Below, one piece after another: positions 189-63,734 of a DNA stretch of 64,000 bases. Numbering within the stretch: position 1 is the first letter of the stretch; every line of letters begins with the position of its first letter. The notes under the pieces are model-generated. The model did not search any database. It was not told the DNA's origin and saw only the letters and a program-made list of their open reading frames with translations. Origin of the DNA: Eledone cirrhosa (Eukaryota); contig OZ024740.1 of assembly GCA_964016885.1 (NCBI GenBank), forward strand, positions 65,844,001 to 65,908,000. The letters run 5' to 3'. A program made the position numbers and the translations under genes.

Positions 189-291
189 TATATACATATA
201 TATATGTATATATATATATAGAAAAAGAGATGAAAACGAAAATGCAACTGGAGTCTTATTTTTTTTAAAAATATATATATTTATTTGATTC

Positions 292-327
292 CTTTATCGG
301 TTTCGCAGTTCTTCTGCTTTTCAAAAG
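292..327 (-). ncRNA. Minimal type I hammerhead ribozyme, U3-A8 core variant, in PLE pLTR
   Basis: Minus strand reads CUU-UUGAAAA-GCAG aagaa CUGC-GAAA-CCGA-UA-AAG. Stem III differs by one base from the CCGG palindrome of the sister copy. Confidence 0.65.
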
Positions 328-850
328 TAGAGTTGAGATGGAGGGTCTCTAGTTTTTCTCACATCTGGCTGGTCTATGAATGTTACTTGTTTTATATGGG
401 AAGAGTGGCTCAAAATGCCAGGTTTTTCGAGAAGTAATTTGATTGGTTGGTCAATAATTATAATAAATTTCACGCCAGTTCGCGTTACAATAGTTCTTCA
501 AATAAGATTGGGGGTTGTCACAGGTTGTTTCTTTCATATATGAGTGTTTGAATTTCTTTTTACTTGAAAAAAGGGGCTCACGAAGGCTTTCTTTTTATTG
601 GTTATAAATGAAATTATGGACTGTCACGTGAACAAGTTTTCATTAAATTTTCGCGACCTGATTTGGAAATCCATTCTGTAGCCTTTTTAGAGAATTTTAT
701 GATAAGTGAAAGATAATGGTCAAGAGAAATGGGATGGGAGAATTGTTCTGGTTCAGTAAATAGGGTTAGTTCGCTGGGGTGTCAGGATTCAGATTTTCTA
801 TTGAATAAAACAAGTAAAGATACGTGTGTTTATTTGTGTGCTTGTGTGCG

Positions 851-914
<64 letters not shown>

Positions 915-1461
915 GTGTGTGTGTATGTTTGAATTTCTTTTTACTCAAAAAAAAAGGGTGGCTCACGCAGGCTTTTTTTTAATAAACGTGATTTGATTGG
1001 TTATAAATGAAATTTGGCTGTCACGTGAACAAGTTTTCATTAAATTTTCGCGCCCTTATTTGGAAATCTATTCTGTAGCCTTTATAGAGAATGTTATGAC
1101 AAGGAAAAGATAGTGGTCAAGAGAAATGGGATGGGAGAATTGTTCTGGTTCAGTGAATATGGTTAGTCCGCTGGGGTGTCAGGATTCAGATTATCTATTG
1201 AATAAAGAAAGTAAAGATATGTATATATTATTTGTGTGCTTGTGTGTGTGTGCGTGTGTGTGTGTGTGTTGTGTGTGTGTGTTTGAATTTATTTTTACTT
1301 TGAAAAAAAGGGTGGCTCACGAAGGCTTTTTTTTAATAAACGTGATTTGATTGGTTATAAATGAAAATCGGCTGTCACGTGAACAAGTTTTCATTAAATT
1401 TTCTATTGAAGTAAAGATATGTATGTTTAGTCGTGTGCTTGTGTGTGTGTATGTGTGTGTG

Positions 1462-1517
<56 letters not shown>

Positions 1518-1986
1518 TATTGGAAGATGATTCTATTAGTAGAAATGGGGGAGGGAGTTGTGTGTGTGTGTATAGGTGTGTTATGTGTGTGTGTGCGAGT
1601 ATGTTAAGATGGAGAGAATATATATTTTGTGCGTATGTATATATGTGTGTAGGAAAGTGGTTCTATTAGTAGAAATGGGGGAGGGAGTTGTGGTTGTGGG
1701 TGTCGTTATGTGTGTGTATGGGTGTTATGTGTGTGGGAGTATGGTTAGCATGTTAAGATGAAGAGAATATATATATATATTGTGTGTTTGTGTGTGTGTA
1801 GGAAAATGATTCCTTTAGTAGGAATATTTTTGAATTAACATATTTTCCTTACTTATTCGTATTTGTTCTGTTGTATTGTCAGTGCAAACGTATGTTAAGG
1901 TTTATTTAGTTCGGGGGTTTTTTTCTAAAGTAGAAGGTGTTATGTGTGTGTGTGTATGTCATATTATGGTGTTGACATAATGTATA

Positions 1987-4725
1987 TTAAACCATATTTA
2001 ATGCTGGTCTATATTTTTGAATAAACATATTTTCCTTATTTATTCGTATTTGTTCTGTTGTATTGTTAGCGCAAAGGTAACATGGGAAGACTTGGTATTT
2101 GGGTGTCTTATTACTTGCGCAAATGTCTAGATATGCACCTAGTGGTATCTGTCTCGTGGTTGGCTCTCGTAATTGTTGACGATGAACTGTCATTCTGTTT
2201 CTGAGTGTGAGTTTAGTTTGTCCTATATAATTTTCATAGCATCCTTTACATTTAATGGCATGGATTAGATTTTTTGATGAGCAAGTGAAGTGATTTTTTA
2301 CAGTAAAATTTTGTCCTGATTTAAATGTATACGTGTTGTCTTCAATGAGGTGAGTGCAGGTTCCACAATTAGAGCGACCACATTTTTTGATACTTGGTTG
2401 TGGGTTTGTGGTAGGTAATTTGGCATTGGTGAGTAATGTTTTCAGTGATTTTGGTTGTCTTTTGCTTTTGATTATTTTGTGTGTTTCAATGGCTTTTTTT
2501 CATTCTTGGGTTTTGTTTTAGTAGTGGGATGTTCTTGTGAATAATGTTGTAAGCTTCCGCATTTCTTGGGTTGTGTGTTGAGATATATGATAGAATATTG
2601 GACGTATCTTGAATTTGTTTCTGTTTCCGTAATTAATCAATGCCTATTGCTTTAGCCCTTTCTATTCCATTATTTATTAGTAATAGTGGGTACTCTCTCT
2701 CGAGTAGAATTTCCTTCAATTCTTGAAGTCTTTTATTTCGCGTTTAATAATTGGAGACAATTGTGCAAATTCTTCTTGCTAGGTTAAAAGGAATGTTCGT
2801 CTTCGTGTGCTTTGGATGGTTGGAGGTGAATAGCAGATATTGTTTGGAATATTTTGGTTTATAGTGTATGTCAGTTTCGATATTTGTGTCTTTTTTAGAG
2901 ATTAAGATGTCCAGAAATGGGAGTTGAACTTGGCTGTATTCCATTGTGAATTGGATGTGGTTATTGATGCCGTTTATTAAGTTTTTGAAATCCTTCAGTT
3001 GGTCGAATGTGTGGGACCAAAGAATGAGACAATCATCCAAGTAGCGTTTCCAATTATCTAATAAATATTTGTGGAAGTTCAATCCGTATTTTGATTTGGA
3101 CTGTTCATATATCTGGACTTCTAAGTATGCCATGACTAAGTTGGCATAAGTTGGAGCGGCTTTTGTACCCATCGCAGTCCCCGATATTTGCTTGTAAGTA
3201 TTGCCATCGAAATCAAAAAAGTTGTTCTGTAAGATGAATTTTAATCCATCGGTGATGAAGCTTTTTTCTATTCTGTCAGGTATCTCATTGGGATATTTCT
3301 CTAGCCAGAATCCTATTGCTTCTAGTCGGTATTGGTGTGGGATCATTGTGTAGAGATTCACTACATCGGAAGACACAATAATAGTGTCGTTGTTGACATG
3401 TTTGGGGAGGTGGTTTAAGAGGTCCAGATCGTCTCTTACAAGGCTTCGTATGTGTTTGAGAATTTGTTTCATTATTATGTCTATAAAGTTGCTCAGTCTG
3501 TGTGTTTCAAATTGTGGGCCCGCTACAATTGGTCTTTATTTAAGGTCTGTGGGGTATTGTGTGTTCACGCAGGCTGAGGTAGATTGTTTACAGGCATCGT
3601 TGAATATTTTACACGTGTGGATCCTCGGAAGTCCGTAAAGGTTGCTGGTTTTGTATTCAAAATTTGTTAAATAATCGCGTTCTTTTTTAGTTAGGTCTTC
3701 CTGGTATCGATAAATCAGTGTGTTTAATCTGGTCATTATTTTTGATTGCTGGTAGTTTTTTACTCTTTCATAGTAATTAGTATTTTGTAAGAGAGAGAAC
3801 ATAGAATTTTTATATTTTTCAGCCTCCATAATGACAACAGTACTTCCCTTGTCCGCTTCCTTAATTATAATGTCCGTATTGTTTTTTAGTTCATGGATAA
3901 TCTCTCATTCTCTTCGACTCGTGTTGGGTTTGGGTTTAGGTTGCGGTAGTTCATGGTATGGGAAGGTAGCTATGAGGTCACAAAATTTGTCCAGAACTCT
4001 GTTTCTACCTTTTGTTGGGTTGTAGCTGCTTTTATTCCGTACAATTGATTCGTCGTTATTCTCCTTGTCAAATAATTCCTCTGTGAGACGTAATTTTCTA
4101 CAGAAGTGTGATATATCGTCATTTATCTCATTGGGGTTAGAGTATTGTGGTGTTGGTGTGAATTTCAGTCCTTTGGAGAGAATTTTTACTTGTTGGGCTG
4201 AGAGGTTTGTATTTGAAAGGTTGATTATTTTCGGATTTTCAAAATCGGTTTGTGCCACCGGGTGTCGTGAGTCCTGTAGCCTTGGTCTAAAAAATGATTT
4301 TTCTGGAATGTTTTTTCAATGGTATTATTATATCTAATGGTATTTCCCCTGTTGATGTGTGGTCTTGTATAGAAGTTTCGGACGTATTGAGGTTCGGTTT
4401 GTTGATAGTGCGGGTTGTAGATTTTGTTCCTTTGTGTGGGTTGGGATCTACGGTTTTGGAACAGGCTCTGTGTGGGCAGGGCTCTACGGTTTTGGAATAG
4501 GTTTTGTGTGGGTTGTGATCTGTGGATCAGGTCCTGCATTGTGTTCGGGGATCTTTGGATTTTGTTAGTAGAGTTATAGTTTTGTCTATCGTTTCTGGGA
4601 TTATCGTTATAGTTTTGCTGGGGGTATGTTGGACGTTTTGTTACTTTTTTTGTTATTTGTTGTGCATGTGGTGTGTGAGTTTTAGTTCGTTTTAAAAATG
4701 GGTTACCACACACACACACACACAA
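1987..4725 (-). pseudogene. Disrupted PLE polyprotein (reverse transcriptase + Cys-rich linker + GIY-YIG endonuclease)
   Basis: ORF pieces give LSKGLKFTPTP, DVVNLYT, QISGTAMGTKAAPTYANL, WKRYLDD and LPFLD...SNHP. My translation at ~2400-2190 gives CGRSNCGTC and NLIHAIKCKGCYENYIGQT...RMTVH. Frameshifts and stops separate the pieces. Confidence 0.88.
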
Positions 4726-5022
4726 GCACTCAAATAAACATACATATCTTTACTTCAATAGAAAATCTGAACTCTGACACACCAGCGAACTAACCATATC
4801 CACTGAACCAGAACAATGGTCCCATTCCATTTCTCTTGACCACTATCTTTTCCTTGTCATAACATTCTCTATAAAGGCTACAGAATATATTTCCAAATAA
4901 GGGCGCGAAAATGAAATGAAAACTTGTTCACGTGACAGCCAAATTTCATTTATAACCAATCAAATCACGTTTATTAAAAAAAACCTTCGTGAGCCACCCT
5001 TTTTTAAAAGTAAAAATAAATT

Positions 5023-5077
<55 letters not shown>

Positions 5078-5588
5078 GCACACAAATAAACATACATATC
5101 TTTACTTCCTTTATTCAATAGAACATCTGAACCCTGACACCCCAGCGAACTAACCATATTCACTGAACCAGAACAATTCTCCCATCCCATTTCTCTTGAC
5201 CATTATCTTTCACTTATCATAAAATTCTCTAAAAAGGCTACAGAATGGATTTCCAAATAAGGGCGCGAAAATTTAATGAAAACTTGTTCACGTGACAGCC
5301 ATAATTTCATTTATAACCAGTCACAAAAAAGCCTTCGTGAGCCCCTTTATTCAAGTAAAAAGAAATTCAAACACTCATATATGAAAAAACAACCTGTGAC
5401 AAACACCCTCTTATTTGAAGAACTATTGTAACGCGAACTGGCGCGAAATTTATTATAATTATTGACCAACCAATCAAAGTACTTCTTGAAAAACCTGGCA
5501 TTTCGAGCCACTTTTTCCATATAAAACAAGTAACATTCAGAGACCAACCATATGTGAGAAAAACCACAGACCCTCCATCTCAACTCTA

Positions 5589-5624
5589 CTTTTGAAAAGC
5601 AGAAGAACTACGAAACCGGTAAAG
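5589..5624 (+). ncRNA. Minimal type I hammerhead ribozyme, U3-A8 core variant, in inverted pLTR copy
   Basis: CUU-UUGAAAA-GCAG aagaa CUAC-GAAA-CCGG-UA-AAG, with palindromic stem III and one mismatch in stem II. Confidence 0.65.
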
Positions 5625-5763
5625 GAACCAAATAAATATATATATTTAAAAAAAAAAAAAAAATAAGACTCCAGTTGCATTTTCGATTTCATCTCTTTTT
5701 CTTTATACTTTCACTCGTGTAGGACAGCTCGGTTATTTTTCATTTTGTAAAAAAAAACCTCAC

Positions 5764-5853
<90 letters not shown>

Positions 5854-6021: not shown

Positions 6022-6107
<86 letters not shown>

Positions 6108-6179
6108 CATTATGAAGAGAGAAGAAACATTTAGATATAATTAGTAATAAAATGTATCATACCGAAACTGCTCCTAGAT

Positions 6180-6269
6180 TCCTCGACTACGTAGTTTCGT
6201 GGCATAAACAAAAACAATACATCATAAAGATATAGAGTCCTTGCGAGGTCTGCCGACTTATCAAGAGGA
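6180..6269 (-). ncRNA. Type I hammerhead ribozyme (family A, U3-A8 core)
   Basis: Minus strand reads UCCUC-UUGAUAA-GU(C)GGCA...UGCCAC-GAAA-CUACGUAG-UC-GAGGA. Predicted GUC cleavage lies between 6185 and 6184. Confidence 0.82.
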
Positions 6270-6771
6270 TATCTCATTTTACTAGCTTCAAGAACGCGTC
6301 TACACGACGTGAGCAAGAATCCCAAAAGGCGGAGGGGGAGATAGTCACGCGATATAACGGTCGAGAAACAGAGCTAATCCTCTTATAACCCCGAAGAAAA
6401 TACCACGGAGGCGGAGGGGGTATTTATATCGAAGCCGTAGAAGAGGTGATGAAGGAGGCGAGAAGTATGAGTAATGGCAGCTTTCCAGCAGTCACCACAC
6501 TTCAAAGATTACTCGACCAGAGGGAGTTATGAACAATATATTCGAAACACACAGATACATGCGGACACACACATATACATGAATGCATCCACACCCAACC
6601 GTGAGTTAATGGTGCCAACCTTACCGATGTTGCTCAATGAATGACTGGGACAGACCAATCCGGTTGAATTAGACTGAACCAGTATCAGAGTTAAAAATAC
6701 ATTATGAAGAGAGAAGAAACATTTAGATATAATTAGTAATAAAATGTATCATACCTAAACTGCTCCTAGAT

Positions 6772-6861
6772 TCCTTGACTACGTAGTTTCGTGGCATAAA
6801 CAAAAACAATACATCATAAAGGTATAGAGTCCTTGCGAGGTCTGCCGACTTATCAAGAGGA
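6772..6861 (-). ncRNA. Type I hammerhead ribozyme (family A, second unit)
   Basis: Same motif, but the 3' strand of stem I is AAGGA, giving a mismatch next to the cleavage site. Confidence 0.7.
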
Positions 6862-7077
6862 TACCTCATTTTACTAGCTTCAAGAACGCGTCTACACGAC
6901 GTGAGAAAGAATCCCAAAATGCGGAGGGGGAGATAGTCACGCGATATAACGGTCGAGAAACAGAGCTAATCCTCTTATAACCCCGAAGAAAATACCACGG
7001 AGATGCAGTATGGTTTTTATATATTTGATATATATATTATCCTTATCGAGCTCTCTTCGTTTTTTAGTTCTCACATT

Positions 7078-7779
7078 TATTATTATTATTATTATTGTTC
7101 TTTGACTCTCAGTCATTGATGTTATTTAAATGGAAGGTTTGTTGAAATGAATATCAAGCCGCTACCTGCAGCCTCAGACATTCAGGACGTGTCGGGGGGT
7201 TCTTGCTCTTCGCAGCAAGCATGCCTTTTGAAGTGTTCCAAAAAACCGGGGCTGGGCTAAACTTCTTTAACCATCCTTGGAAACTCTTTGAGATAGTACC
7301 TAGTGCGCCTATCACAATCGGGACGACCTTGATTTCATGGCAGTTCCAAATCTTTTGAACTCCCACTTTAATTTCTGGTACCGCTTAATTTTCTCCCTCT
7401 CCTTTTCTTGCACTCTCGTGTCAAATGGGCAGGCTACATCTACAAACAGGCTCAATCTATTTTCCTTATCCAAAACCACCAGGTCAGGCCTATTGTGTTC
7501 TAATTTCTTGTCCGTCTGTATCCTAAATTCCCATATCACCTTCACCTGATCGTTTACTATCACCGACACTGGTTTATGCTCATACCATTTCTCAGAATGT
7601 GGTAAATTGTTTACTTTACATAGGTGCCAACTGATCACCCTACCCATCACATCATGTCTCCAGCCTTTATAGTGAGTCTGGGCTAGGTGTTTACACTCGG
7701 ATACAATGTGAGCCATAGTCTCCTATCTCTCTCTCCGCAGATCCTACGCAGTGAGCTAGCCTCCTCCTTGTCAATATGT
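7078..7779 (-). mobile_element. 5'-truncated R4/Dong LINE copy (diverged relative of the 9971-13363 element)
   Basis: ORF pieces HIVSEC...RHD...RPDLVVLDK...DVACP; (TAA)n tail. Confidence 0.88.
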
Positions 7780-7789
7780 TATTATTATT

Positions 7790-8300
7790 ATCATTTTTAT
7801 TTCATTTTATTATTGTTTTTGAGATATATGCCGAGTGTCTTCCTGACACCTAGGGCAAATAAATTCACAGCGTTCATTGGTAAACCAGTTAATACAGCAT
7901 TATAATATAATAAAAAATATTAAAAAAAGTATACATATATACACATGTGCATATGCATATGTAAACACAAGGAGGGATATCAATCTTATAGTGCTCTTCT
8001 CAATACGTGTGCAGTACCAGTCAAAACAATGTTTTGCACCTCGTGCAGAGAGAGCAAACCAGGAAACATTCGCAAATATTGTTCTGTTCCTTTCTTGATC
8101 ATACCCAGTCCTCCCACAATCACTGGTATTGTAACGGCCTTGAGGTGCCACATTTTCTCAATTTCAATAAGCAGATCTTCATATTTTCGAAGCTTGTCAA
8201 ATTCTTTTGCCGCGATATTGTGATCACATAGGATGCTCATATCTATCAATAAACAGACTTTTTTATGTTGGCCTTTTATAATGATGTCAGGTCTATTTGC
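7790..8300 (-). mobile_element. 5'-truncated R4/Dong LINE 3' fragment, second family
   Basis: IDMSI..D.NIAAKEFDKLRKYEDL...IPVIVGGLG...GTAHVLRRAL is an RLE C-terminus; bounded by ATT repeats. Confidence 0.8.
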
Positions 8301-8301
8301 T

Positions 8302-9868
8302 TATTATTATAATTATTATTATTATTGTTATTGTTATTCCTTGAATCTCAGTCATTGATGTTGGTTAACTGGAAAGTCCGTTGGATTGAATATCAAGCCA
8401 CTACCTGCAGCCTCAGATATTCAGGACGTATCGGAGGGTTCTTGCTGTTCCAAGCAAGCATGCCTTTTGAAGCGTTCCAAAAAGCGTGAAGGGGCCGATT
8501 TTCTTTAACCATCCCTGGAAACCTTTGGAGATAGTCCCCAGTGCGCCTATGACAATCGGGATCACTTTGACTTCATGGCAGTTCCAAATCCTTTTCACCT
8601 CCCACTTTAGGTCCTGGTATCGGTTAATTTTCTCCCTCTCCTTCTCTTGCACTCTCGTGTCGAACGGGCAGGCCACATCCACAATCAGGCACGATCTTTT
8701 TTCTTTGTCCACAACCACCAGGTCAGGTCTATTGTGTTCCAGTTTTTTGTCCGTCTGTATCCTAAAATCCCACAGCACCTTCACCTGACTGTTCTCCATC
8801 ACCGCCTCTGGCCTATGCTCATACCATTTCTCAGAATGTGGTAGATTGTTTACTTTGCACAGGTGCCAGTGGATCACCCTGCCCATCACATCGTGTCTCC
8901 AGCCCTTATAGTGGGTCTGGGCTAGGTGTTTACACTCGGACACAATGTGAGCCACAGTCTCCTCTCTCTCTCCACAGATCCTGCACAGTGGGCTAGCCTC
9001 CTCCTTGTAGATATGGTGCTTCAACCACTTCGTTTTGAGGGCCTGCTCCTGCGCAGCCATTAGCATTCCTTCTGTAGACTTTTTGAGGTCTCCTCTTCTC
9101 AACCAGTTCCATGTCTGTGGATCTCTAAATTCAGTTTTCTCAAAGAAGGTACTATGAAGGGATTTTCCCTTAAGGCTGCTCTTCCTCCTTGATGTTATTT
9201 CCTCCTTGGATATCCCCTGGCCTACTGTCCCCTCCTTCAGTACAGCTCTGAGCATTGGCTCCTTACTATAGGTCACGTATTTGTATAGGTTGTTTTTCTC
9301 CATCTGAACACAGTCCTCTATGCTGATAAGACCTCTTCCACCCTCAGATCTCCTTAGGTAGAGTCTATCGACATCTCTCCTCTTGTGGAACATGTTGTAG
9401 ATAGTCAATATCTTCCTAGTCTTCCTATCCATTTCTTTTTGTTCAGCAACATTCCATCTCAGAATTCCCGCACTGTACCTAATAATAGACACAGCTCGGG
9501 AATTTACTGCGCTTATGGCATTTCTGCTGTTCAGATGTGACTTCAATACGCTCCTTACTCTCCGAATGTATTCAGTTCTTAACAATTCCTTCATTTTTTT
9601 TGTTCTTTATGCCATCAGCCTCCAGAACGCCCAAATACTTGTATCCTTCCTCAGAGTCAATTTCCTTTATCATCTCACCTGTTGGTATCTGGATCCCGTT
9701 ACTTCTGCTCAACCTACCCCTCTTCATCACAATGACTCCACATTTACCAATACCAAACTGCATACATATATCACTGCTGAAAATACGGACAGTGTCAACA
9801 AGCACATCCAACTCCTTCTCACTTTTCCCGAAGAGCTTAAGATCGTCCATGAAGAGGAGGTGATTGAT
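8302..9868 (-). mobile_element. 5'-truncated R4/Dong LINE copy, nearly identical to the adjacent full-ORF copy
   Basis: The 393-aa ORF 8413-9594 matches the C-terminus of the 1130-aa ORF with only a few substitutions. There is a 1-nt frameshift in a T-run near 9600, and the copy is truncated at INHLLFMDD. Confidence 0.93.
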
Positions 9869-9970: not shown

Positions 9971-12900
9971 TCAGATATTCAGGACGTATCGGAGGGTTCT
10001 TGCCGTTCCAAGCAAGCATGCCTTTTGAAGCGTTCCAAAAAGCGTGAAGGGGCCGATTTTCTTTAACCATCCCTGGAAACCTTTGGAGATAGTCCCCAGT
10101 GCGCCTATGACAATCGGGATCACTTTGACTTCATGGCAGTTCCAAATCCTTTTCACCTCCCACTTTAGGTCCTGGTATCGGTTAATTTTCTCCCTCTCCT
10201 TCTCTTGCACTCTCGTGTCGAACGGGCAGGCCACATCCACAATCAGGCACGATCTTTTTTCTTTGTCCACAACCACCAGGTCAGGTCTATTGTGTTCCAG
10301 TTTTTTGTCCGTCTGTATCCTAAAATCCCACAGCACCTTCACCTGACTGTTCTCCATCACCGCCTCTGGCCTATGCTCATACCATTTCTCAGAATGTGGT
10401 AGATTGTTTACTTTGCACAGGTGCCAGTGGATCACCCTGCCCATCACATCGTGTCTCCAGCCCTTATAGTGGGTCTGGGCTAGGTGTTTACACTCGGACA
10501 CAATGTGAGCCACAGTCTCCTCTCTCTCTCCACAGATCCTGCACAGTGGGCTAGCCTCCTCCTTGTAGATATGGTGCTTCAACCACTTCGTTTTGAGGGC
10601 CTGCTCCTGCGCAGCCATTAGCATTCCTTCTGTAGCCTTTTTGAGGTCTCCTCTTCTCAACCAGTTCCATGTCTGTGGATCTCTAAATTCAGTTTTCTCA
10701 AAGAAGGTACTATGAAGGGATTTTCCCTTAAGGCTGCTCTTCCTCCTTGATGTTATTTCCTCCTTGGGTATCCCCTGGCCCACTGTCCCCTCCTTCAGTA
10801 CAGCTCTGAGCATTGGCTCCTTACTATAGGTCACGTATTTGTATAGGTTGTTTTTCTCCATCTGAACACAGTCCTCTATGCTGATAAGACCTCTTCCACC
10901 CTCAGATCTCCTTAGGTAGAGTCTATCGACATCACTCCTCTTGTGGAACATGTTGTAGATAGTCAATAGCTTCCTAGTCTTCCTATCCATTTCTTTTTGT
11001 TCAGCAACATTCCATCTCAGAATTCCCGCACTGTACCTAATAATAGACACAGCTCGGGAATTTACTGCGCTTATGGCATTTCTGCTGTTCAGATGTGACT
11101 TCAATACGCTCCTTACTCTCCGAATGTATTCAGTACTTAACAATTCCTTCATTTTTTTGTTCTTTATGCCATCAGCCTCCAGAACGCCCAAATACTTGTA
11201 TCCTTCCTCAGAGTCAATTTCCTTTATCATCTCACCTGTTGGTATCTGGATCCCGTTACTTCTGCTCAACCTACCCCTCCTCATCACAATGACTCCACAT
11301 TTACCAATACCAAACTGCATACATATATCACTGCTGAAAATACGGACAGTGTCAACAAGCACATCCAACTCCTTCTCACTTTTCCCGAAGAGCTTAAGAT
11401 CGTCCATGAAGAGGAGGTGATTGATGGTAAGCTCTCCCCTTCCCAACTTGTATCCTGCTCTCACTTTTCGCAGCATAATGGTCAAGGGCATCAGGGCAAG
11501 GACAAACAACAGAGGGGACAGGCTATCTCCCTGGAAGATACCTCTCTTGATCTTCACGCTTCCCAAGGATACTCCAGTTGATGTCAACTCTGTCTCCCAG
11601 GACCCCATACTCCTGCCCAGCAACTGTCTGATGTTATCTGCCACCCTGAAGATCTCCAGGCTTTTGGTGATCCAGGAATGAGGCACCATGTCAAATGCCT
11701 TTCTGTAGTCTATCCATCCCATGGCAAGATCAGTGTGTCTCCTCCTGCAATTCCCCATTACCATCTTATCAATAAGCAACTGGTCCTTTGTACCACGTGA
11801 CTTCTTTCGGCATCCTTTCTGTTCGTCCGGCAACAAGTTGTTTGTGTGGAGGTGATGGTAGATTTCCTCAGACACAATGCTCGTCAACAGTTTCCACATT
11901 ACGGGCAGACATGTGATAGGTCTATAGTTGGTAACATCATTACCCTTGATTCGGTCTTTCATTATCAGAACTGTGGTACCTTTTGTCAACCACTCTGGCA
12001 CCTCACCCGACACCAAGCAGTCATTGAACATGGCCGTCAGCTTCGGGTGGAGGGATGTTAAATGTTTAATCCAATACCCCTGCACACCATCTGGGCCTGG
12101 TGATTTCCAGTTGGTTAGTTTTTTGGCTTGCCCCTTAAGAGTTTCAACTGTGATACTCAAATCAGTCTGTTGCTGTGCCTGCTCACCGATCTCCCTCTGT
12201 ACTGTCTCAATCCACCCTGCCTGGGCATTGTGTCTAACATCCTGCTCCCATATTCCTCTCCAGAATGTTTTAGCTTGTTCCGCCCCAGGGATCAAGTCGG
12301 TGCCTCTTTCTTTCCCCTCAAGCTGTCCAAACAGCATCTTCTGGTTGTTGTCGAACATGCGGTTCTGTTTATACTGACTGACTCTGTTCTCGTATCGCCT
12401 GATTTTGGCACTCTTTGCTACAATGCGTTGCTTCAATTCCTCTATGATAATATTTAGCTTTTTACTCCTAGTTTTGTATTTTATTTCCAGTCTATTTTTA
12501 GTGCCTATGTTTTTTAGTGTCCCATTCAGTAGTGACTCAAGCTTTCCTATGTCATTTCTCATTTCCCCGATTTGCCCACTCAGTCGCTTCTTCCACCACG
12601 GCTCTGCTCTTTCTTGTCTGTTGTTTCCTCTCGCTTTTATACCAAGTAGTTTCCTCACCGTATTTGCTGTTGCTTTGAGGATATTGTTGCACTGGTGAAG
12701 ACTCCTCGCCTCAAGGTATGGGATGACTTTGTTTACCTTAGCTGTTGTTTCTTTTAACTTTTTCCTGTCTACAAATCTTAGGTTCATAGGTCTCCCACTA
12801 TCATTGTTCAACTCATCTACCACTAAATTTAGGATGTCAACCGAATCTTGTCCTAGCCCGTCAGCATTCATCTCCTCAGTGGCCGTATCTCTGTTCCAGG

Positions 12901-13363
12901 TATTATTTATCTCAGTATTCAGATCATTGTCTGCTTCGGGTGGTTCCTCCGCTCTCGGGACCTCCTCACCTTCATTTCCCGCCGGCTCGCTTGTCTGGCA
13001 TACTACACCCGCCATCTCCAAGCCATTCTCTCTGCTCAGTTCCTCCAGTTCCAGCTCGCTTATCCACCCATTAGTTCTTATTACCCGAGCCTGCCCGGCC
13101 AATTTTTGTTCATCTAATTTAAATAAACCAATCTCGTTCCAGATGTTATGCATCCGTCTCCTGTAGCCCCTCTCCTTGGGGTTACTTTTCAGGTAGCATT
13201 GCATAACAGTTCTATTCAATTCTTTCGTCCAGTTGGTTCTGGCCCCTTTCCTTCTTCTTCTTCCTCCAACATCAGCAGTATTTCGTTGACAGTCAGGTTC
13301 CTGCTGCTGAGCCAGGGGGCACCTGTTGGGTGAGAGTCTGTCACATGACGTTCTAGTCTCCAT
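9971..13363 (-). CDS. R4/Dong retrotransposon protein: reverse transcriptase, CCHC zinc knuckle, restriction-like endonuclease (1130 aa, intact)
   Basis: KSPGPDG, YRPITCL, EQKG, WIDYRKAFD, RGIFQGDSLSP, HLLFMDD, YKYLG, GGRGL, CRICGEREETVAHIVSEC, RHD and RPDLVVVD..DVACP.D motifs. Confidence 0.95.
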   Translation of the reverse strand: METRTSCDRLSPNRCPLAQQQEPDCQRNTADVGGRRRRKGARTNWTKELNRTVMQCYLKSNPKERGYRRRMHNIWNEIGLFKLDEQKLAGQARVIRTNGWISELELEELSRENGLEMAGVVCQTSEPAGNEGEEVPRAEEPPEADNDLNTEINNTWNRDTATEEMNADGLGQDSVDILNLVVDELNNDSGRPMNLRFVDRKKLKETTAKVNKVIPYLEARSLHQCNNILKATANTVRKLLGIKARGNNRQERAEPWWKKRLSGQIGEMRNDIGKLESLLNGTLKNIGTKNRLEIKYKTRSKKLNIIIEELKQRIVAKSAKIRRYENRVSQYKQNRMFDNNQKMLFGQLEGKERGTDLIPGAEQAKTFWRGIWEQDVRHNAQAGWIETVQREIGEQAQQQTDLSITVETLKGQAKKLTNWKSPGPDGVQGYWIKHLTSLHPKLTAMFNDCLVSGEVPEWLTKGTTVLIMKDRIKGNDVTNYRPITCLPVMWKLLTSIVSEEIYHHLHTNNLLPDEQKGCRKKSRGTKDQLLIDKMVMGNCRRRHTDLAMGWIDYRKAFDMVPHSWITKSLEIFRVADNIRQLLGRSMGSWETELTSTGVSLGSVKIKRGIFQGDSLSPLLFVLALMPLTIMLRKVRAGYKLGRGELTINHLLFMDDLKLFGKSEKELDVLVDTVRIFSSDICMQFGIGKCGVIVMRRGRLSRSNGIQIPTGEMIKEIDSEEGYKYLGVLEADGIKNKKMKELLSTEYIRRVRSVLKSHLNSRNAISAVNSRAVSIIRYSAGILRWNVAEQKEMDRKTRKLLTIYNMFHKRSDVDRLYLRRSEGGRGLISIEDCVQMEKNNLYKYVTYSKEPMLRAVLKEGTVGQGIPKEEITSRRKSSLKGKSLHSTFFEKTEFRDPQTWNWLRRGDLKKATEGMLMAAQEQALKTKWLKHHIYKEEASPLCRICGEREETVAHIVSECKHLAQTHYKGWRHDVMGRVIHWHLCKVNNLPHSEKWYEHRPEAVMENSQVKVLWDFRIQTDKKLEHNRPDLVVVDKEKRSCLIVDVACPFDTRVQEKEREKINRYQDLKWEVKRIWNCHEVKVIPIVIGALGTISKGFQGWLKKIGPFTLFGTLQKACLLGTARTLRYVLNI

Positions 13364-13933
13364 TTCACCGTTATTCGAACTGTTTATGTTCGATATTTAA
13401 ACACTCTTATCGAGGATTGGCGAATGTATGTTTACATAGCCATCTGTGGATCCGCCATCCCACTTGGCCCTTGTGTGGCATTATCACCACGCTGTATACG
13501 GACACACATAAACAAACAAACACACGGGCAGAAAGGGCCCCAAAAATGAATAAGCATAAGTTTCATTGTAATGTAGTATTCGAATGTCTGACTTAGTTTT
13601 TGTTTTTTAAGTTTTACTTTTTCCCCCCTCTTCTCTGTCCGTCCGCCTGCTTCTCTCTTCATTCTTATTTTCTTTACGTTTTTGGGGTTTCTTTTTTTGT
13701 TTTTGTTTTTTTCTGTTTTTCTCGTTTTTTACTGTTGTTGCTGTGCTGCTTTTGTTGTTTGTTTTTTCTTTTTTCTTTTGAGTCTATCTATATATTTTGA
13801 TGCCTTCCTCTTTGTTAGTAGTAGGAATTCTATAATGTGGAAGTGGTAGCCAGCAGAGACTAGCGGCGTTGGCGATACTAAGACAGTGGTGGCGGTGATG
13901 TCGATACCGAGGCAGTGGTGGCGGTGATGCGAC

Positions 13934-15083: not shown

Positions 15084-15260
15084 ATTATTATTATTATTAT
15101 TATTATTGTTATTGTTATTCCTTGAATCTCAGTCATTGATGTTGGTTAACTGGAAAGTCCGTTGGATTGAATATCAAGCCACTACCTGCAGCCTCAGATA
15201 TTCAGGACGTATCGGAGGGTTCTTGCCGTTCCAAGCAAGCATGCCTTTTGAAGTGTTCCA
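15084..15260 (-). mobile_element. Very short 3' fragment of the main R4/Dong family
   Basis: Near-identical to 9869-10038; flanked by ATT repeats. Confidence 0.9.
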
Positions 15261-15261
15261 A

Positions 15262-15321
<60 letters not shown>

Positions 15322-18300
15322 TGGCGACCTACGTAGGAAATCGTATTATCGTGAGCTCCGCAAATGTTTGTTGTTTTCAGTTGTTTCAATTGCCAGTTAT
15401 GGAACATTTTTGTTGTTAAGTGTTTATAATATATTGCTTTCTGAAAATGACACAGAAAATATTGGGTCCTTGAGACCCAAACCTAAACTTGTTATTTATC
15501 AAACAAAATATTTATTTGAAAAAAAAAATATGGACGACAATTTTTCCGTTTTTAACAGACCAACACCCTCCTCCTCCTCCACCACCAACGCCAACACCAT
15601 TGTAAACCTTGCTACGGATCCCAACACTGAAAATATAATTAATAGCAGTTTGAATTATTTACAATTGCCGCATAAAGACATGGATTTCCCGCCATTACCA
15701 ATAACTGCAGGTGTTAAAGTCGCCACCACCACCATCACCTCCACCACCACCACAACAACAGCGACAAAAGAAACCCCCCAAAATAAATTATTCTTTCGTT
15801 ACATCGAAATGGATTCACCCAGAATCGAATCTTCCACGCCGAACACCACTAACACCACTACCTCCACCACAACTGAAACTTAAAATAACAATAACAACAA
15901 CAGCAACAACAACAACAATGAGAATAACAACATCAATACCACCGCGATACAAAATGTGTTGTTTGGCAAAGCAGCCAAGAAAAGCGAAACAATCCAGGTA
16001 AGCTAGGGTGAATTAAATAAAGCCTAGAGAATGGTAAAAAAAGATGGGTACAGGGTCAGCCAAAAACAAAATGCAGAGGGAAACAAATAATCTATCAAAC
16101 AAAATATTTTAGGACAGCTATGCCACCATCCACACCAGCATCACCAACCCCATTACCACAAACACCAACACCATCACCATCTTTAACCCCAACACCACCA
16201 TTACCAACACCACAAAAGTCACCAAAAAGCGAAACAGAAACAAACCCACAACAAACGCAAACAAAACATAACAACCAAAACGATACACACTACACAGCAT
16301 TAAATTTGAACAACAACCAATTATTACACTGCATCCAACACAACACCAGCATCACAGAAAATACTACACAACAACCCAAAAGTTCACACCACCTCCACAC
16401 ATACAAATCACTAGTATCACACAGAAAACGTACACGATATTAAAACAAAAATTCCCCAAAGCCATCGGAGATTTCTGACAAGCACTCTCCAGGAGCATTT
16501 ATAAGGACATCCTTCCGGAGGAGGCCACAGGCAGTGAAAAGAATGGAAAAACCATCCTTCCTCTACGAGAAGTAAGGTAAGTGGTCTTTCCCATCGTTTC
16601 CACTCCAATTCAACATTACCTCACTCAGAATAGGCAGCATAAATGCGCGTTGCTTCTGGTCATCATGGAAGCAGGGCCACCTGCTCAAGGACTTCAGGTC
16701 ACTAAACATAGATGTAGTGGTCATCAGCGAGACCAGAATCTCCGAAGCACGTGCCTTCACACCGATCATCGGCGGCTACGATGTGTACGCATCTCCCAGC
16801 CGTCCTGGATGGGGGGGGGAGGAGTTGCTGTGCTTTTTCAGAGAGGTTTGGATGTCGCCATACGGGCCTTCTTCCTGGACCCAGAAGGTACGTTGGTGGT
16901 GCTGGACGTTGGTGGTGATGGACGTGGCCGTCTATGCTGAGACAGGAGCAGGGTGGCCTGATTTATTCCGGCGTCTGGAGACCTTTCTTTGAACTTCCCG
17001 CACTTTGGTGGTAGTGGGCGACTGGAACGGGATCTTAGATGCAGCTGGGACTGTGTGGGAGGAGGGTGCAATAGCCTCACCAACCTGCTCAGGCTCTGAA
17101 CTGTCTTGGATTTCCCGAATGTGCCAATGTGGATTTGGACAAATCGCATCGGATCATCCAGATTATATCTAGATAGAGTATTTTGTAGGGAAATAGGTAG
17201 GTCTAGCATAGGCTGTCCACAATTCAAGATAGTCAGCTACGCGGACCACAAATTCGTGATCTGTGTGTTTGACTTAGATAGGCTTCATAGACGACGACCC
17301 GGCTACTGGAAGCTAAACGCGTCCTTACCAGAGCACATGGCCTACATAGACCTGATTAGCGAACTAATTAAGCGGGCGTTGACGGGGGCCATCGCCAACA
17401 ACAAGTGGTGGTTTGCTCTGAAAAGAGCGATCAGAATAGAGTCCATTAGGTTTAGTAATAGAGAAAAATAGGGTAGAGGGAGAACTAGTTAGAAAATTAG
17501 ACGAGGCGCTTAGCAAAGGCATCGCGACCGATGTACTTGCGGCGAAATTGGCTCTTGACCAATTCTTCAATGCAAAGCACGAAGGCTACGTTGTCAGAGC
17601 TAGGGTGCATGCTCTCAGACACTAGGGGACGAAAGCCGTTCAATGGGCCCGAGTGGCGGAGGCCGGTCGTGGCAACAAAGCCACGATCCGGTCTTTGGTG
17701 GACCACGACAGGCGCATACTACTCGATCCCGAGCTAATGTGTGAAGCTTTTCAGCGATACTTCGCGGGGGCAGCGGCGGGCCGGAACGAGGGATGGACTT
17801 TAGTGTCTACCTCGACGGACTACCGCGGCTCTCGGCCACTGAGCCCGAGTGTTGCGAAAAGCCGATAACAGCCGCTGACGTACCGGAGGCAATTACTGGC
17901 TGCACAAGGGGTAAATCGCCTGGTTTGGATGGTCTGCCCTACGAAATTTACGTACAGATTCCAGACTTGTTCGGAGGCCTCTTGGCGGACCTCTACTGCA
18001 AATGGCAACAGAACGGGAGAATTCCCAGCTCTGTGAGCCGAGGAGCGGTGTCACTGCTGACAAACGATCCGAACAATAGGGATAACATAGATCATTTCAG
18101 GCCCATAACTCTGCCAAACAGAGTTCAAGATTTTGTACATGGTGCTATCAAAGAGGTTGGCGCTTGTCGTTGGTGGCCTGGTGGGAGAGGCGCAGACATG
18201 CGCCATTCCCGACAGATCCCTCCACGACAATCTCCACCTCATGCGATACATTGTGGAGAAGGTAGCTAGGGAACCTGGCACGGGTGGGTCCTTGATAAAT

Positions 18301-20064
18301 TTAGATCAGTCGAAAGCTTTCGATAGGGTCGACCATCGTTACCTAGCGGCAGTCCTGAAGGCGGCTGGCTTTGGGCCCATCCTCAGAGGCTCGATCGCTG
18401 CCATGCACAGCGACATCTGCTCTGTGGTCAGAGTTAACGGTCACCTTTCGGAACCGTTCAACATCATGCGCTCGGTCCGCCAAGGATGTCTCCTCTCATC
18501 CCTCTTGTACGTATTGACTCTCGAGCCATTACTGCACATACTGGAGACGTTGAGGGGGATTCCGCGCGAACTAGGATGCGGAAGATCCGTGTCAGCATAT
18601 GCGGACGATGTCACCGTAGTGGTGTCGAACGCCAAACACATCGAGGCGATCGGCACTACACTAAGATAATACAAAGCGGTGATAGGAGCAATCGTCAACC
18701 AGGAAAAGTCAGTGGGCCTGCAGCTCGGCACTTGGAGAGGAGGGTCCATGCCGTCCAACAGCGTCGTCCGGAGCTGGACGGACGGACCGGATAAATTGCT
18801 AGGGGTCTGGTTCGTTCCGGAACTCCAGACGGACAAAAAGTGGGACGAATTGACGAGCTGGGTGGCTTCTCTCACCCAGATGTGGGCATGGAGGAGGCTA
18901 ACCCTGAAATGTCGAGCGGGGGTGGCTAAGGCGTACATTGCGTCCGTCTTCTACTACCGCCTGACCGTCCTGCCTTGTCCTGATCCTCGCCTGACTGCGC
19001 CTGAGCGTTTGCTCTTTCGCTTTTTGTGGAAGGGACGCACTCCGATGGTCAGGCGGTCCGTCTGCTGTCAACACCCACTAAGTGGAGGGCTGGGCATGCC
19101 ATGGCTGATGATGAGTAGATACGCGCTTAGGCTACGACATCTCAACCTCTTCCTCGACGGTGATCAGGTGTGATCGCCATTTGCTAGACGCGCATTTCCC
19201 CAGCTGGTCTCCTTGACGGAGCTGCAGTACTGGGTCAAGCGAAGACCGAGAGGGAGCGCTTGGAGACTGGAATGTCTTCAGGCGCTCACAGCCCTCGACC
19301 AATACGGGCAATGTGGTCGGTGTAAACTCCACCTTCGCGTTGTATAGAGGATTAGTGGAGGGGAAGAGCGACGACATACATGGAGAAACTCTAGGCGTCG
19401 TCGACGAAAATCAATTAGCCAATCTCTTCGGAAGAACTTTCGGGCCGGGGCCTATGGAAAACTTCCAGAAATCCCTGGCCTGGCAGTTGTACCGAGTAGC
19501 TTTGCCAGTTCGGGATAAACTCTACAGGCATGGATTGCCCCGCCCTCTTCCTTTAGCCGGGAAGAGCAGGCAATTTTTATCTGTCTGGTGGCCATGGGGA
19601 AAGAGATAGTATGATGGACGCGTTTGAAAGGGCTGAAGACGAGCACTTACCTCTTCGGTGATGCTCTAATTAACTTTTTTAAATTTCATTTAAAAAGGAA
19701 AATCAGGGTAGAGTAGAAGGTGCTCTCTTCACAATATTTTGTTGAAAGATGGATGAGAGACGCAAGAATGGCCCGTGTGATTGGGCCTATTCTGAGTATG
19801 TGCCTGTAAATTGAAGGTTGAAAACTGTGAGCGGGCACTTGCACTAGTGGTCAGGGTCACCGTGGCTTTTTTTAATGGGCTTTCTCCACGAATGTCCTTC
19901 GGAAGTATCCCCCCTATTGGGGAATTTTTCATTGTTTCTTTTTTTGTTACATCCTCTGTTTTTTATTGTTTTTATACGCGCAGAAATGTCCATTTGAGCT
20001 GTATTGTCCTGTACTCTGCTTAATGTCTTACTTTGTGTAAACCCTTGTGGTTAATAAAGAAAGC
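15322..20064 (+). mobile_element. Decayed L1/Tx1-clade non-LTR retrotransposon
   Basis: Low-complexity ORF1-like region, then APE and RT fragments. Ends with AATAAA and has ATT repeats on both sides. Confidence 0.85.
16600..19790 (+). pseudogene. Tx1-like ORF2 (AP endonuclease + reverse transcriptase), frameshifted
   Basis: VISET, YLDRV, DHK, GYWKLNASL, GKSPGLDGLPYE, FRPITL, LDQSKAFDRVDH, VRQGC.LS.LLY.L.LEP, SAYADD and GGLGMP motifs. Confidence 0.88.
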
Positions 20065-23650: not shown

Positions 23651-23789
23651 TCGTGTGATCAATAAACGATGGTTAATACTGTAAATATCGTCGGCTCTCT
23701 AAATATTTATTTTAAACAAAATACGAAATTCCAATACATATCTGCATACAACTATGCCTGAAGCTAAATTGTATATATACATATATATA

Positions 23790-31041: not shown

Positions 31042-32352
31042 TGTTACGCTAGAAAGGTTAGTAGCTACTGTTATCCTAAGTCCTAACTCATTGAAGGTAG
31101 ACGCTAAGTCTCTAGCGTAGATTTCTTAGACATTAATTTAGACCATTTCACACACATCTACAGACCCTTCCATAAGCTAAACGAAAAAGTCAATTACATT
31201 CACAAGGAATAATACCACCCTCCCACTGTTTTTAGAAACTTCGTAAATAATATCAGTACTAGAATCTCAAACCTCTCCTCTAATAAGGCTATATTTGACA
31301 GGGCTGCACTCTACTATAACACGGCATTAGCTAACAGCGGCTTCTCGCAACCAATTTCTTACTCTCCCACTAACAACAACAACAATAAGAAAAAAAGCCT
31401 AACAATTGACAAACTATCTGGTTCTCTCCTCCCTTCTCACTCAACATTAAAACCAATGTAGGCAAAACATGTCTAGTCCTCTTAGACAGACACTTCCTCA
31501 TAGGTCACAAATACCGCTCCATCTTTAACCGACACAAAGTAAAACTAGGATACTCCTGCGCTAAGAACATGAAGGCCCACATCACCAACAGCCCTAAGAG
31601 CACTACCCCACCAGGGTACTCTTGCCGTAAGCCCGAAGCTTGTCCTCTTTAACAGCAATGCAATACACCCGCTGTAGTTTATGAAGCTGTGGTCACTTCC
31701 AACCAACCAAATCAACCACAGGAGATCAAATCCTATGTGGGTATGGCGGGGGGGCGATTTAAGGAACGCTTCTTGAACCACCAAGTGACATTTACAGTAC
31801 CCGGACAGACGTTCATCCACGAAACTCGCGAGCCACGTATGGTCCCTCAAAGACTCAAGTATAAACTACTCCAATGGAAAGCCATCACTAAGTTCAAGCC
31901 ATACGCAAGGGGCAGTCCGTCGTGTGGACTATGTATTGATGAACGAATAAATAGTCTAAAGAGATTACGCAATAGTGATTTCCTATACGAGGAATGAATT
32001 GTTCACACGTCGTCCACACGTCTGGAAACAGCTCTTACATAACCAAAAATCTCCGGATTGAATTACAACAACATCCTAATTTTCTTATCAACCAGCAACT
32101 TTCGGACTTTCGAAGTTATCTCCCTTACACCTCTCGCACGCAATTTAATATTGGCTGTGTGAAGTGATCATTTCTGCGCATGCGCATTCGTACGGTTGTC
32201 CTTCCTCTTCCGTCCATTACGAGCTGAGGATTCGCTGAGGTGAAACAATTGTTCTCGGTATGGTGAACTAAATGTTGTGTAACCATTTCTACCTAACTGA
32301 TCCCTTGGAATGAGTGCCCTACCACTACGGATATTAACTTCCAGTGTTCTAC

Positions 32353-32355: not shown

Positions 32356-32414
<59 letters not shown>

Positions 32415-32447
32415 GTATATACATACGTATTTATATATATATATATT

Positions 32448-38326: not shown

Positions 38327-39808
38327 AACGGCGATGAATTAGTTTTGCGAGGTTTTTTATACGAAATCGTGTGTCGAAACAAATATTGTTATACTTGGGG
38401 AGGGTCATTTTTGTGTAATATTGCCAGAATTAATAACAGAACACACTCACTGTTTGGTTGGTTTTCGCTTTTCGCTTCTGTGTCCTTTATATCGGTAATC
38501 TAATTTATTCGGTCCACAATGTTGCCATTGACTGACCAATGGTAAACAATAATAGAGATACAATATAGACACAAAAACATATATATATAGTTTATCAAAG
38601 TTCTTTCGTAGCACATCTGCAACAACGTCAGTGGTGCTATTTTTTCCTCCCGTTACATTGTATTTCTACGCCATTTTTATTTAGTCTGTCTATATAATTA
38701 TTTATTTATTTTTGTGTTTGTTTATTTTATTTTGCCTTCTTTGCGCATGCGTTTGCGTGTGTGTATATTGTTTTGTTTATTGTGTGTTCGTGATTGGGTG
38801 ACTGTGTATCGGTCAATCTATTCTATCTTCTCTAGTGTGTGTTTATATGTGTTTGTTGTTATTGTGCTTGTATATGTATTTATTTATTTATTTATCTATT
38901 TATTTATTTATTTATTTATTTATTTATACTTCTCTTAGGTCAGTGTTGTTTGTTTGGGTGTTGTTATTCCATTCATTCTTTCTGTTTAGTCTTGGCCTTC
39001 TAAGTTCTATTTCACTGGCCTCTCTGATTTGCCTATCTGATGGGTCATTTCTATGTTTAGATATTATTCTAATTTCTATGTTGTCTATGTTACCGTCGTG
39101 TTATTGTCTGGCATGTTCGTATAGTACTGACCCGTTTTTTCGTCCTTTTAGTTCCCCCCAATGTTGGTCTATCCTTTCACCTATGCTACTAGCTGTCTCG
39201 CCTATGTATCCACCTTCCCATGGGAGTCTTTTTTGCCATTGAGGTTATGGTGGGGGGGGGGGGGGGGTTACCTATTATGGGTCTATTAGGGCAGAAACAT
39301 CTAAGGTCATGGCTGTCTAGGTAGTCAGTGTCGTAAGTAAGTCTAAGTAGGAGGCCCAGTTCGTCTGATTCGACGTCGCAGAACTCCACCTCACTCTCAA
39401 TGATCATCTCCACACATTCTTCCACAGCTAAATCAATGATAATGGATGGGTACAGTGATACCACATCCATGCTGCCTATTATGCTGTTGGATAGGTTCCT
39501 GTTTTTGTTGCACTCACTGATTCTGCTGAGGATACGATGTAACGGGAGGAAACAATAGCACCACTGACGTTGTTGCAGATGTGCAACGAAAGAACTTTGA
39601 TAAACTATATATATGTGTTTGTGTCTATATTGTATCCGTATTATTTTTGACCGTTGGTCAGTCAATAGCAACATTGAGGACCGAATAAATTAGATTACCG
39701 ATATAAAGGACACAGAAGCGAAAAGCGAAAACCAACCAAACAATGAGTGTGTACTCTTATTAATTCTGGCAATATTACACAAATATGACAGTCCCCAAGT
39801 ATAACAAT
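38327..39808 (-). mobile_element. Internally deleted Naiad-like PLE copy with inverted pLTR at its 5' side (~39533-39808)
   Basis: 38327-39205 matches 60742-61610, and ~39205-39532 matches ~62745-63040 (IIGSMDVVSLYPSI). ~39533-39808 is the reverse complement of the 3' UTR. Confidence 0.85.
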
Positions 39809-39815
39809 ATATATG

Positions 39816-39914
<99 letters not shown>

Positions 39915-39983
39915 TATGAAGAGAGAAGAAACATTTAGATATAATTAGTAATAAAATGTATCATACCTAAACTGCTCCTAAAT

Positions 39984-40073
39984 TCCTCGACTACGTAGTT
40001 TCGTGGCATAAACAAAAACAATATATCATAAAGATATAGAGTCCCTGCGAGGTCTGCCGACTTATCAAGAGGA
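39984..40073 (-). ncRNA. Type I hammerhead ribozyme (family A, U3-A8 core)
   Basis: CCUC-UUGAUAA-GU(C)GGCA...UGCCAC-GAAA-CUACGUAG-UC-GAGG. Confidence 0.82.
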
Positions 40074-40578
40074 TACCTCATTTTACTAGTCTCAAGAACG
40101 CGTCTACACGACGTGAGAAAGAATCCCAAAAGGCGGAGGGGGAGATAGTCGCGCGATATAACGGTCGAGAAACAGAGCTAAGCCTCTTATAACCACGAAG
40201 AAAATACCACGGAGGCGGAGGGGGTATTCATATCGAGGCCGCAGAAGAGGTGGTGAAGAAGGCTAGAAGTATGAGTAATGGAAGCTTTCCAGTTGTCCCC
40301 ACACTTCAAAGATTGCTCGACCAGAGGGAGTTATTAACAATATATTTAGAAACACACAGATACATGCGGACACACACATATATACATGAATGCATCCGCA
40401 CCCAACTGTGAGTTAAGGGTGCCAACTTCACCGATGTTGCTCAATGAATGACCGGGACAGACCAATTCAGTTGAACTAGACTGAACCAGTATCAGAGTTA
40501 AAAATACATCATGAAGAGAGAAGAAACATTTAGATATAATTAGTAATAAAATGTATCATACCTAAACTGCTCCTAAAT

Positions 40579-40668
40579 TCCTCGACTACGTAATTTCGTG
40601 GCATAAACAAAAACAATATATCATAAAGATATAGAGTCCCTGCGAGGTCTGCCGACTTATCAAGAGGA
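40579..40668 (-). ncRNA. Type I hammerhead ribozyme (family A)
   Basis: Same motif, but stem III is UUACGUAG (C-G changed to a U-G wobble). Confidence 0.75.
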
Positions 40669-41278
40669 TACCTCATTTTACTAGTCTCAAGAACGCGTCT
40701 ACACGACGTGAGAAAGAATCCCAAAAGGCGGAGGGGGAGATAGTCACGCGATATAACGGTCGAGAAACAGAGCTAAGCCTCTTATAACCACGAAGAAAAT
40801 ACCACGGAGGCGGAGGAGGTATTCATATCGAGGCCGCAGAAGAGGTGGTGAAGAAGGCTAGAAGTATGAGTAATGGAAGCTTTCCAGTTGTCCCCACACT
40901 TCAAAGATTGCTCGACCAGAGGGAGTTATTAACAATATATTTAGAAACACACAGATACATGCGGACACACACATATATACATGAATGCATCCGCACCCAA
41001 CTGTGAGTTAAGGGTGCCAGCTTCACCGATGTTGCTCAATGAATGACCGGGACAGACCAATTCAGTTGAACTAGACTGAACCAGTATCAGAGTTAAAAAT
41101 ACATTATGAAGAGAGAAGAAACATTTAGATATAATTAGTAATAAAATGTATCATACCTAAACTGCTCCTAAATTCCTCGACTACGTAGTTTCGTGGCATA
41201 GTTGGGTGCGGATGCATTCATGTATATATGTGTGTGTCCGCATGTATCTGTGTGTTTCTAAATATATATATATATATA

Positions 41279-41409
<131 letters not shown>

Positions 41410-41414
41410 ATATA

Positions 41415-63733: not shown

Positions 63734-63734
63734 T

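Follow-up and report, generated by a model that had tools for sequence, protein, structure and literature searches.

A non-coding hammerhead repeat of Eledone cirrhosa, probably a retrozyme copied into (TA)n by Penelope-like machinery

The window analysed here, a 64,000-nt stretch of the Eledone cirrhosa genome (contig OZ024740.1, 65,844,001 to 65,908,000), contains two short arrays of a tandem repeat, Family A, of about 1.5 and 2.2 units, both adjoining (TA)n and 93-94% identical to each other (Table 1). Array 2 is a two-armed insertion spanning 39911-41267, in which each arm ends at a different one of two fixed 3' ends, A and B. Unit coordinates, q1-q595, follow the minus strand from 40505 down to 39911. 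The earlier note had placed two arrays of a unit of about 593 bp without reverse transcriptase (RT) at these positions, and this description holds: the periods are 592 and 595 nt, and a Family A dimer has no ORF, its longest stop-free frame being of 80 codons (48 from an ATG). Nearly all Family A tandems examined have a period of 585-595 nt. The same note's view of the unit as unusually large does not stand, since retrozyme consensus lengths given in the literature span 51-972 bp and average 650 bp in ray-finned fish (Li, Clavereau and Pollet, 2026, 10.64898/2026.07.22.740005).

Table 1. Family A features and the PLE-a remnant in the window (q, unit coordinate)
Feature	Position	Strand	Remarks
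PLE-a remnant	209-5770		Inverted arms; U3-A8 hammerhead near 5590-5625
(TA)n target, 3' end of array 1	6081..6106		
Array 1	6107..7002	-	One full unit and about half a unit, period 592; 3' end is site A in (TA)n; 5'-truncated
Intact hammerhead motif, array 1	6180..6269	-	U3-A8, long stem II, palindromic helix III; predicted cut after 6185
Second hammerhead motif, array 1	6772..6861	-	C-A mismatch in the stem I pair adjoining the cut site
(TA)n target left of array 2	39807..39910		
Array 2, long arm	39911..41200	-	Two full 595-nt units and 100 nt; 3' end is site A (39911)
Splice-donor-like site	39961..39969	-	22 nt past the predicted cut (q539/540); one public contig links its counterpart in another copy to a host exon
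Intact hammerhead motif, array 2	39984..40073	-	Predicted cut after 39989 (q517)
Site B, second fixed 3' end	40339..40347	-	q159-167 at these positions (family range q166-173); at the base of a long conserved hairpin
Hammerhead motif, array 2	40579..40668	-	One helix III change, palindrome broken
Third hammerhead, array 2	41174..41200	-	3' half alone, the rest lost to 5' truncation
Array 2, inverted second arm	41201..41267	+	Ends at site B, running into (TA)n
(TA)n target right of array 2	41268..41399		

The window also holds remnants of several Penelope-like elements (PLEs). One of them is PLE-a (Table 1), and further Penelope-like remnants lie at 61325-63813, 39189-39810, 33731-35766, 23716-24516 and 31653-32949, several of which end in (TA)n. 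Beside array 2, at 41409-42437, are short repeats of about 230 nt in a nested inverted arrangement, and the same family occurs in the flanks of other Family A loci. An open 1141-aa frame of a non-LTR retrotransposon (RVT_1) occupies 9971-13396 on the minus strand; partial copies of this element are found at 7070-9600 and 15090-15389, and its tandem 3' fragments end in (ATT)n. Decayed LINE-like endonuclease and RT frames are present at 16576-19609 on the plus strand.

A relaxed scan finds in Family A, on the minus strand, a type I hammerhead motif with stem I CCUC/GAGG, the palindromic helix III ACUACGUAGU and a GUC site, and a predicted cut after q517. Its core reads UUGAUAA (U3-A8) with a GAAA box, and an extended stem II, closed by G-C, puts 57 nt between the core boxes. 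The features of PLE-type hammerheads are all present, namely the 3-8 pair, the GA boxes, G10.1-C11.1 and the palindromic helix III. It had been claimed that every unit carries a complete type I hammerhead; stem I, helix III and the GUC site are indeed as claimed, but only two of the five positions in the window are intact. The U3-A8 core, the extended stem II, the adjoining (TA)n and the inverted arm of array 2 are absent from the earlier description. Among 270 young pieces that span the ribozyme, overlapping loci included, 258 have an intact core. The whole window gave no match to Rfam at the gathering score. Two-sided covariation was found in none of the 29 pairs of the hammerhead stems, because stems I-III are nearly invariant and hence too uniform to covary; one-sided changes in the stem II extension keep pairing. 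Over the whole unit, two-sided changes affect 4 of 163 predicted pairs and come in effect from one subfamily split. Conservation of the motif is seen against an older subfamily that is 80% identical, where majority differences number 2/47 in the ribozyme region against 95/539 elsewhere (p 0.014).

Folding predictions temper the expectation of efficient self-cleavage. Stem I has a predicted pairing probability of 0.0 whether the full-length unit is folded as linear or as circular RNA, and helix III reaches predicted stability only when two copies pair as a duplex (-12.9 kcal/mol), so that cleavage may be weak or need a protein. The circular monomer fold has a z of -5 against 40 shuffles. Taken as a model, the predicted fold fits a stable circle and also weak cleavage. 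Two other observations concern hammerheads. A different type I motif, with a C3-G8 core and a TA-palindrome as helix III, is present at window 45139-45194 (minus strand), and similar motifs flank L005 and L089. At L202/L203 (G000:C4:341452721-341453343) there is a dimer of period 565 in which both units have the same deletion in the stem II extension.

Family A is dispersed and is not a satellite. One 23-nt half of the hammerhead motif has 7,458 exact matches in the 3.0-Gb genome, against 0 for the reversed control. We took the first 100 exact matches on C1 as a position sample; they represent 50 loci, about two matches per locus, and about 4.5 kb upstream was included where a locus had one orientation. 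Scaled from this sample, there are at least roughly 3,700 loci genome-wide. To it were added sixty best-hit loci (54 distinct arrays) and 25 loci of the older subfamily, which keeps both the period and the two 3' ends. The arms are short, with a median of 558 nt and a longest case of 7.4 units, and thousands of such loci are not the long arrays at few places, lacking fixed ends, by which a satellite would be recognized.

On the ribozyme strand, the 3' ends of Family A are fixed at two sites. Site A (q593-595) lies 78 nt past the predicted cut and site B about 245 nt past it, and (TA)4 is found within 25 nt of 72 of 75 3' ends. Both end regions are conserved toward the older subfamily (1/26 differences at site A, 1/30 at site B). 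Single-arm insertions (n=26) use the two sites equally, 12 ending at A, 12 at B and 2 elsewhere. Two-armed insertions are head to head and combine A with B in 23 of 26 cases in the position sample (one of them a local duplicate) and in 23 of 28 among the best-hit arrays. The only same-site insertion is a dubious A+A, which gives 45 one-of-each insertions against 1 same-site where half would be expected (p about 1e-12). The seven remaining two-armed insertions have one end elsewhere, in two cases at the edge of the retrieved DNA.

The 5' ends behave differently. They are spread across the unit (KS p 0.10); a single arm of the 78 stops within q510-525, near the cut site, which rules out the ribozyme site as a point of insertion or truncation. 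Because truncations ignore the cut site, cut linear monomers are not the template; the template was either uncut or re-ligated. Synthesis of the second arm by fold-back copying of the first was also ruled out, as arms of either type can be the longer one. Correlation of arm lengths, which we looked for as a sign of simultaneous synthesis, was not significant (rho 0.33, p 0.13, n 23). The patch of the unit that could pair best with (TA)n, q119-136, lies hidden inside a hairpin and does not serve as an end; the position of the end sites is therefore not a matter of base pairing alone. Altogether, the marks of PLE insertion are all present in Family A: two fixed 3' ends, 5' truncation, an inverted 5' arm and a microsatellite target.

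It is against this set of ends that amplification at the DNA level has to be weighed. A satellite or MITE-like repeat in which the hammerhead-like motif arose by chance would fit the tandem organisation and the inverted arms, and the missing Rfam match and covariation agree with it. Yet such a repeat would hardly combine fixed 3' ends and variable 5' ends on the ribozyme strand with short dispersed arrays, or keep, over 20% divergence, a motif with the full conserved core and a compensating U3-A8 pair. We regard it as very improbable.

A closer competitor, although still an improbable one, treats the arrays as pseudo-LTRs, the truncated ends of an autonomous PLE whose ORF lies further upstream. 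All the PLE insertion marks listed above speak for it, as does the splice-donor-like site after the ribozyme, a feature of PLE leaders, and the evidence against it comes from a genome sample that is not exhaustive. The unit was joined to a PLE ORF at 0/50 position-sampled, 0/54 best-hit and 0/25 older-subfamily loci; where PLE remnants occur near a locus, either microsatellite lies between them and the array or the array has inserted into them. More than one unit is present in 33 of 78 sampled arms, and these stay in unit sequence throughout, as do arms that run to seven units. As these arms continue without reaching an ORF, an autonomous parent with this terminal repeat can account for at most a small share of the copies. 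We searched for another family with the same helix III and a shorter stem II and found none: the four matches are all deletion derivatives. The earlier note had proposed a stand-alone, non-coding, PLE-dependent retrozyme, against which attachment to a PLE ORF would have told; all 50 position-sampled loci are free of it and thus agree with the proposal.

The same genome offers a candidate for the enzyme. PLE-a is very abundant, with 12,818 ribozyme matches, and many copies elsewhere in the genome have open 775-aa RT and GIY-YIG frames with a CX4CxxC linker; the linker, rather than a tree, assigns it to the Neptune/Nematis type (Craig et al., 2021, PMC8557442). PLE-a resembles Family A in its U3-A8 hammerhead, in a first end about 80 nt past the cut, in its (TA)n target and in its one-of-each ends, and it differs by its coding frame, by a shorter tail of about 63 nt between first and second end, and by having no significant sequence similarity to Family A. 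An upstream ORF begins just after its second end. The first 100 PLE-a matches include 24 close head-to-head pairs; 23 of them were retrieved, and 21 of these 23 two-armed insertions have one end of each kind. This pattern, together with the PLE literature, matches the ends of Family A and indicates that Family A was inserted the way PLEs are. It also means that the A+B rule alone is no proof of a circular template, and we abandoned it as such. PLE-a is a candidate helper only. The unit has no similarity to the PLE proteins of the window (best E 0.09), none was found to PLE 3' regions, and a likeness by eye between ends A and B and the ends of PLE-a was not above background. Other repeat ends abutting (TA)n also occur in the flanks of Family A loci.

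Our preferred reading, to which we give a probability of roughly 80%, is that Family A is a non-autonomous retroelement, a retrozyme with a predicted hammerhead of Penelope type, copied into (TA)n by the enzyme of an autonomous PLE. By its lack of coding capacity, its length, the layout of unit and hammerhead and the coexisting PLEs, it is likely to belong to the metazoan non-LTR retrozymes, self-cleavage being a prediction from the motif. The PLE reverse transcriptase/endonuclease, probably as a dimer, would cut both strands of (TA)n and use both sites, A and B, of a single RNA for priming; the resulting pair of cDNAs would then be joined head to head. Usually, dimeric or longer transcripts would be cut by the hammerhead and ligated into a monomeric circle, which could be read round more than once.

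The last of these steps can be examined through variants that are private to one array. We compared 95 arrays, leaving out the duplicate L012/L081, the mosaic L044 and seven divergent or rearranged loci (L044 was restored in the in-register comparison below). In these arrays, 29 private variants are fixed in all units that cover them, against a permutation mean of 1.1 and a maximum of 3 (200 permutations). Rare variants fixed in one arm are also present in the other in 17 of 18 cases, and in L117 the fixation of private variants, up to three of them, extends over 7-8 units and both arms. Private variants fixed in all units favour one monomer read repeatedly, that is, a circle. The fixed private variants are also enriched in A>G/T>C changes (17/29, against 26/173 of the single-unit variants; p 2e-6), an excess that points either to a stage at which RNA or RT is involved or to selection acting on the fold. 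ADAR editing, considered as its cause, is not separable from the others: the predominance of A>G over T>C is weak (9 v 8, p 0.16), and reaches 21/39 (p 0.04) when pooled with outgroup-polarised changes.

Several arrays show other patterns. In L040, the two arms have three variants in matching register and a further two that come close to it, and this array looks as if it was copied from a mixed multimer, or altered by arm-to-arm conversion. Two variants alternate with period two in the seven-unit arm of L048-L050 (G000:C4:81321754-81326646), as a dimeric circle or the duplication of a dimer would give. The subfamily changes within one arm of L044 (G000:C6:46949426-46952213), between q311 and q482, a position that rules out a template jump at the cut site. 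An in-register check found 68 single-unit variants without a partner in the other arm and 3 shared ones, all in one array, which makes L040 the exception. Local duplications inside some arrays imply that homogeneous sources could arise at the DNA level, and undersampled lineages could also look array-private.

These observations bear on the main competitor of the circular template, which differs from our preferred mechanism in the circle step only and takes somewhat under half of the weight within it. It is the same PLE-driven element copied from an uncut linear multimer; here the motif would persist because it binds protein or cleaves rarely, and arrays would be homogeneous where their sources are young or locally expanded. 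We consider it doubtful but far from negligible. The in-register variants of L040, the local unit duplications and the predicted masking of stem I all fit this alternative, and so do two published results: insertion of a lizard PLE in vitro needs no ribozyme cleavage and yields no reads that end at the cut site (Frangieh et al., 2024, PMC11167929), and cleavage was reported for 1/9 frog retrozyme dimers (Li, Clavereau and Pollet, 2026). On the other side stand the preponderance of single-unit variants without an in-register partner and the private variants of L117, and the fixing of new alleles would in any case need a step from monomer to multimer. On balance we put the odds that a monomeric circle is the usual template slightly above even, judging from these genomic copies. 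The fuller proposal is more tentative and falls somewhat short of even odds: that an RT dimer primes at both sites of one 595-nt circle from the two strands of a cut (TA)n target and travels round it from each, that thousands of insertions directly record rolling-circle reverse transcription, along with changes made in the RNA (possibly A-to-I edits) and fixed in every unit, and that some copies donate first exons to host genes.

Public sequencing runs contribute to the last of these points. Of six runs, none of them recorded as RNA, four were covered, in the form of contigs, from which RNA ends and circles are not visible. In run X4, a contig follows the unit as far as the donor-like site q539 and then passes into sequence that has a single occurrence in the genome. 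This occurrence lies on C22, downstream of a Family A copy on the same strand at a distance of 3.7 kb, and is immediately preceded by a pyrimidine tract and AG. The exon thus joined holds an intronless 363-aa frame of an Anp1-family glycosyltransferase (ORF L061:1643-2734; L062:5258-5761, L062:9396 onward). From this one contig we infer a transcript in the ribozyme sense, spliced from a Family A copy to a host exon, and the copy on C22 may supply a 5' exon to the glycosyltransferase gene. Run X6 gave a low-depth contig of 621 nt, comprising one unit, which fits a tandem or a circle equally.

Family A can be compared with three kinds of known element. Like metazoan non-LTR retrozymes as they are described (Cervera and de la Pena, 2020, PMC7229834; Li, Clavereau and Pollet, 2026), it consists of head-to-tail non-coding units with one type I hammerhead each, coexists with PLEs, and has a weak palindromic helix III suited to cleavage as a dimer, a stable predicted fold and a length inside 51-972 bp. 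It exceeds the units of 150-450 bp whose circles were demonstrated in the account of Cervera and de la Pena (2020), and it is known here from DNA. Unlike the retrozymes of these descriptions, it has a U3-A8 core with an extended stem II and a strict (TA)n targeting, and in place of their long arrays it forms thousands of short, often two-armed insertions.

With PLE pseudo-LTRs and their tail, as characterized by Craig et al. (2021, PMC8557442) and Frangieh et al. (2024, PMC11167929), Family A shares partial tandems, 5' truncation, the inverted 5' arm, the (TA)n bias, two fixed ends 3' of the hammerhead and an extension at one end only. In the former account the PLE 'tail' is found at one end only, and in the latter the lizard PLE used two internal start sites in vitro, with both strands extended and a predicted dimer. 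Family A differs in having no ORF and in a tail of about 167 nt as compared with 30-40 nt in those accounts. Moreover, both its ends have short (TA)n homology, whereas the lizard element starts at a site non-homologous to the cut DNA (PMC11167929).

The hammerhead itself is closest to variants from PLEs. Cores with U3-A8 were described in PLE hammerheads (Cervera and de la Pena, 2014, PMC4209133), and Family A has that of the Schistosoma Cercyon elements. With the Drosophila virilis type of the same study it shares the short helix I, G10.1-C11.1, the bulged helix II and the palindromic helix III. Compared with the variants described there, its helix II extension is much longer, and the motif lies in a non-coding tandem.

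It is thus likely that Family A adds one more retrozyme to a group for which this size is already known and a link to PLEs already proposed; a PLE origin of retrozymes is the thesis of Li, Clavereau and Pollet (2026). Its value is rather mechanistic. It leaves countable genomic footprints, in which two start sites are used once each, there is no stop at the cut site and variants are fixed across arms. Our literature search, which was incomplete and did not extend to supplements, found no count of end pairing or of fixed variants in retrozyme arrays. Circular RNA as the template of multi-unit cDNA (PMC4209133, PMC7229834) and PLEs as the helpers have been proposed and not demonstrated in the accounts cited here. 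The footprints, together with the presence in this genome of an intact PLE that targets (TA)n, open the question of circle or multimer to a direct biochemical test. If the circular reading is true, Family A and the intact candidate helper that accompanies it would allow a step proposed since 2014 to be studied readily in vitro. For the host, the apparent splicing of one copy onto a glycosyltransferase exon represents a possible route by which such an element may touch gene expression.
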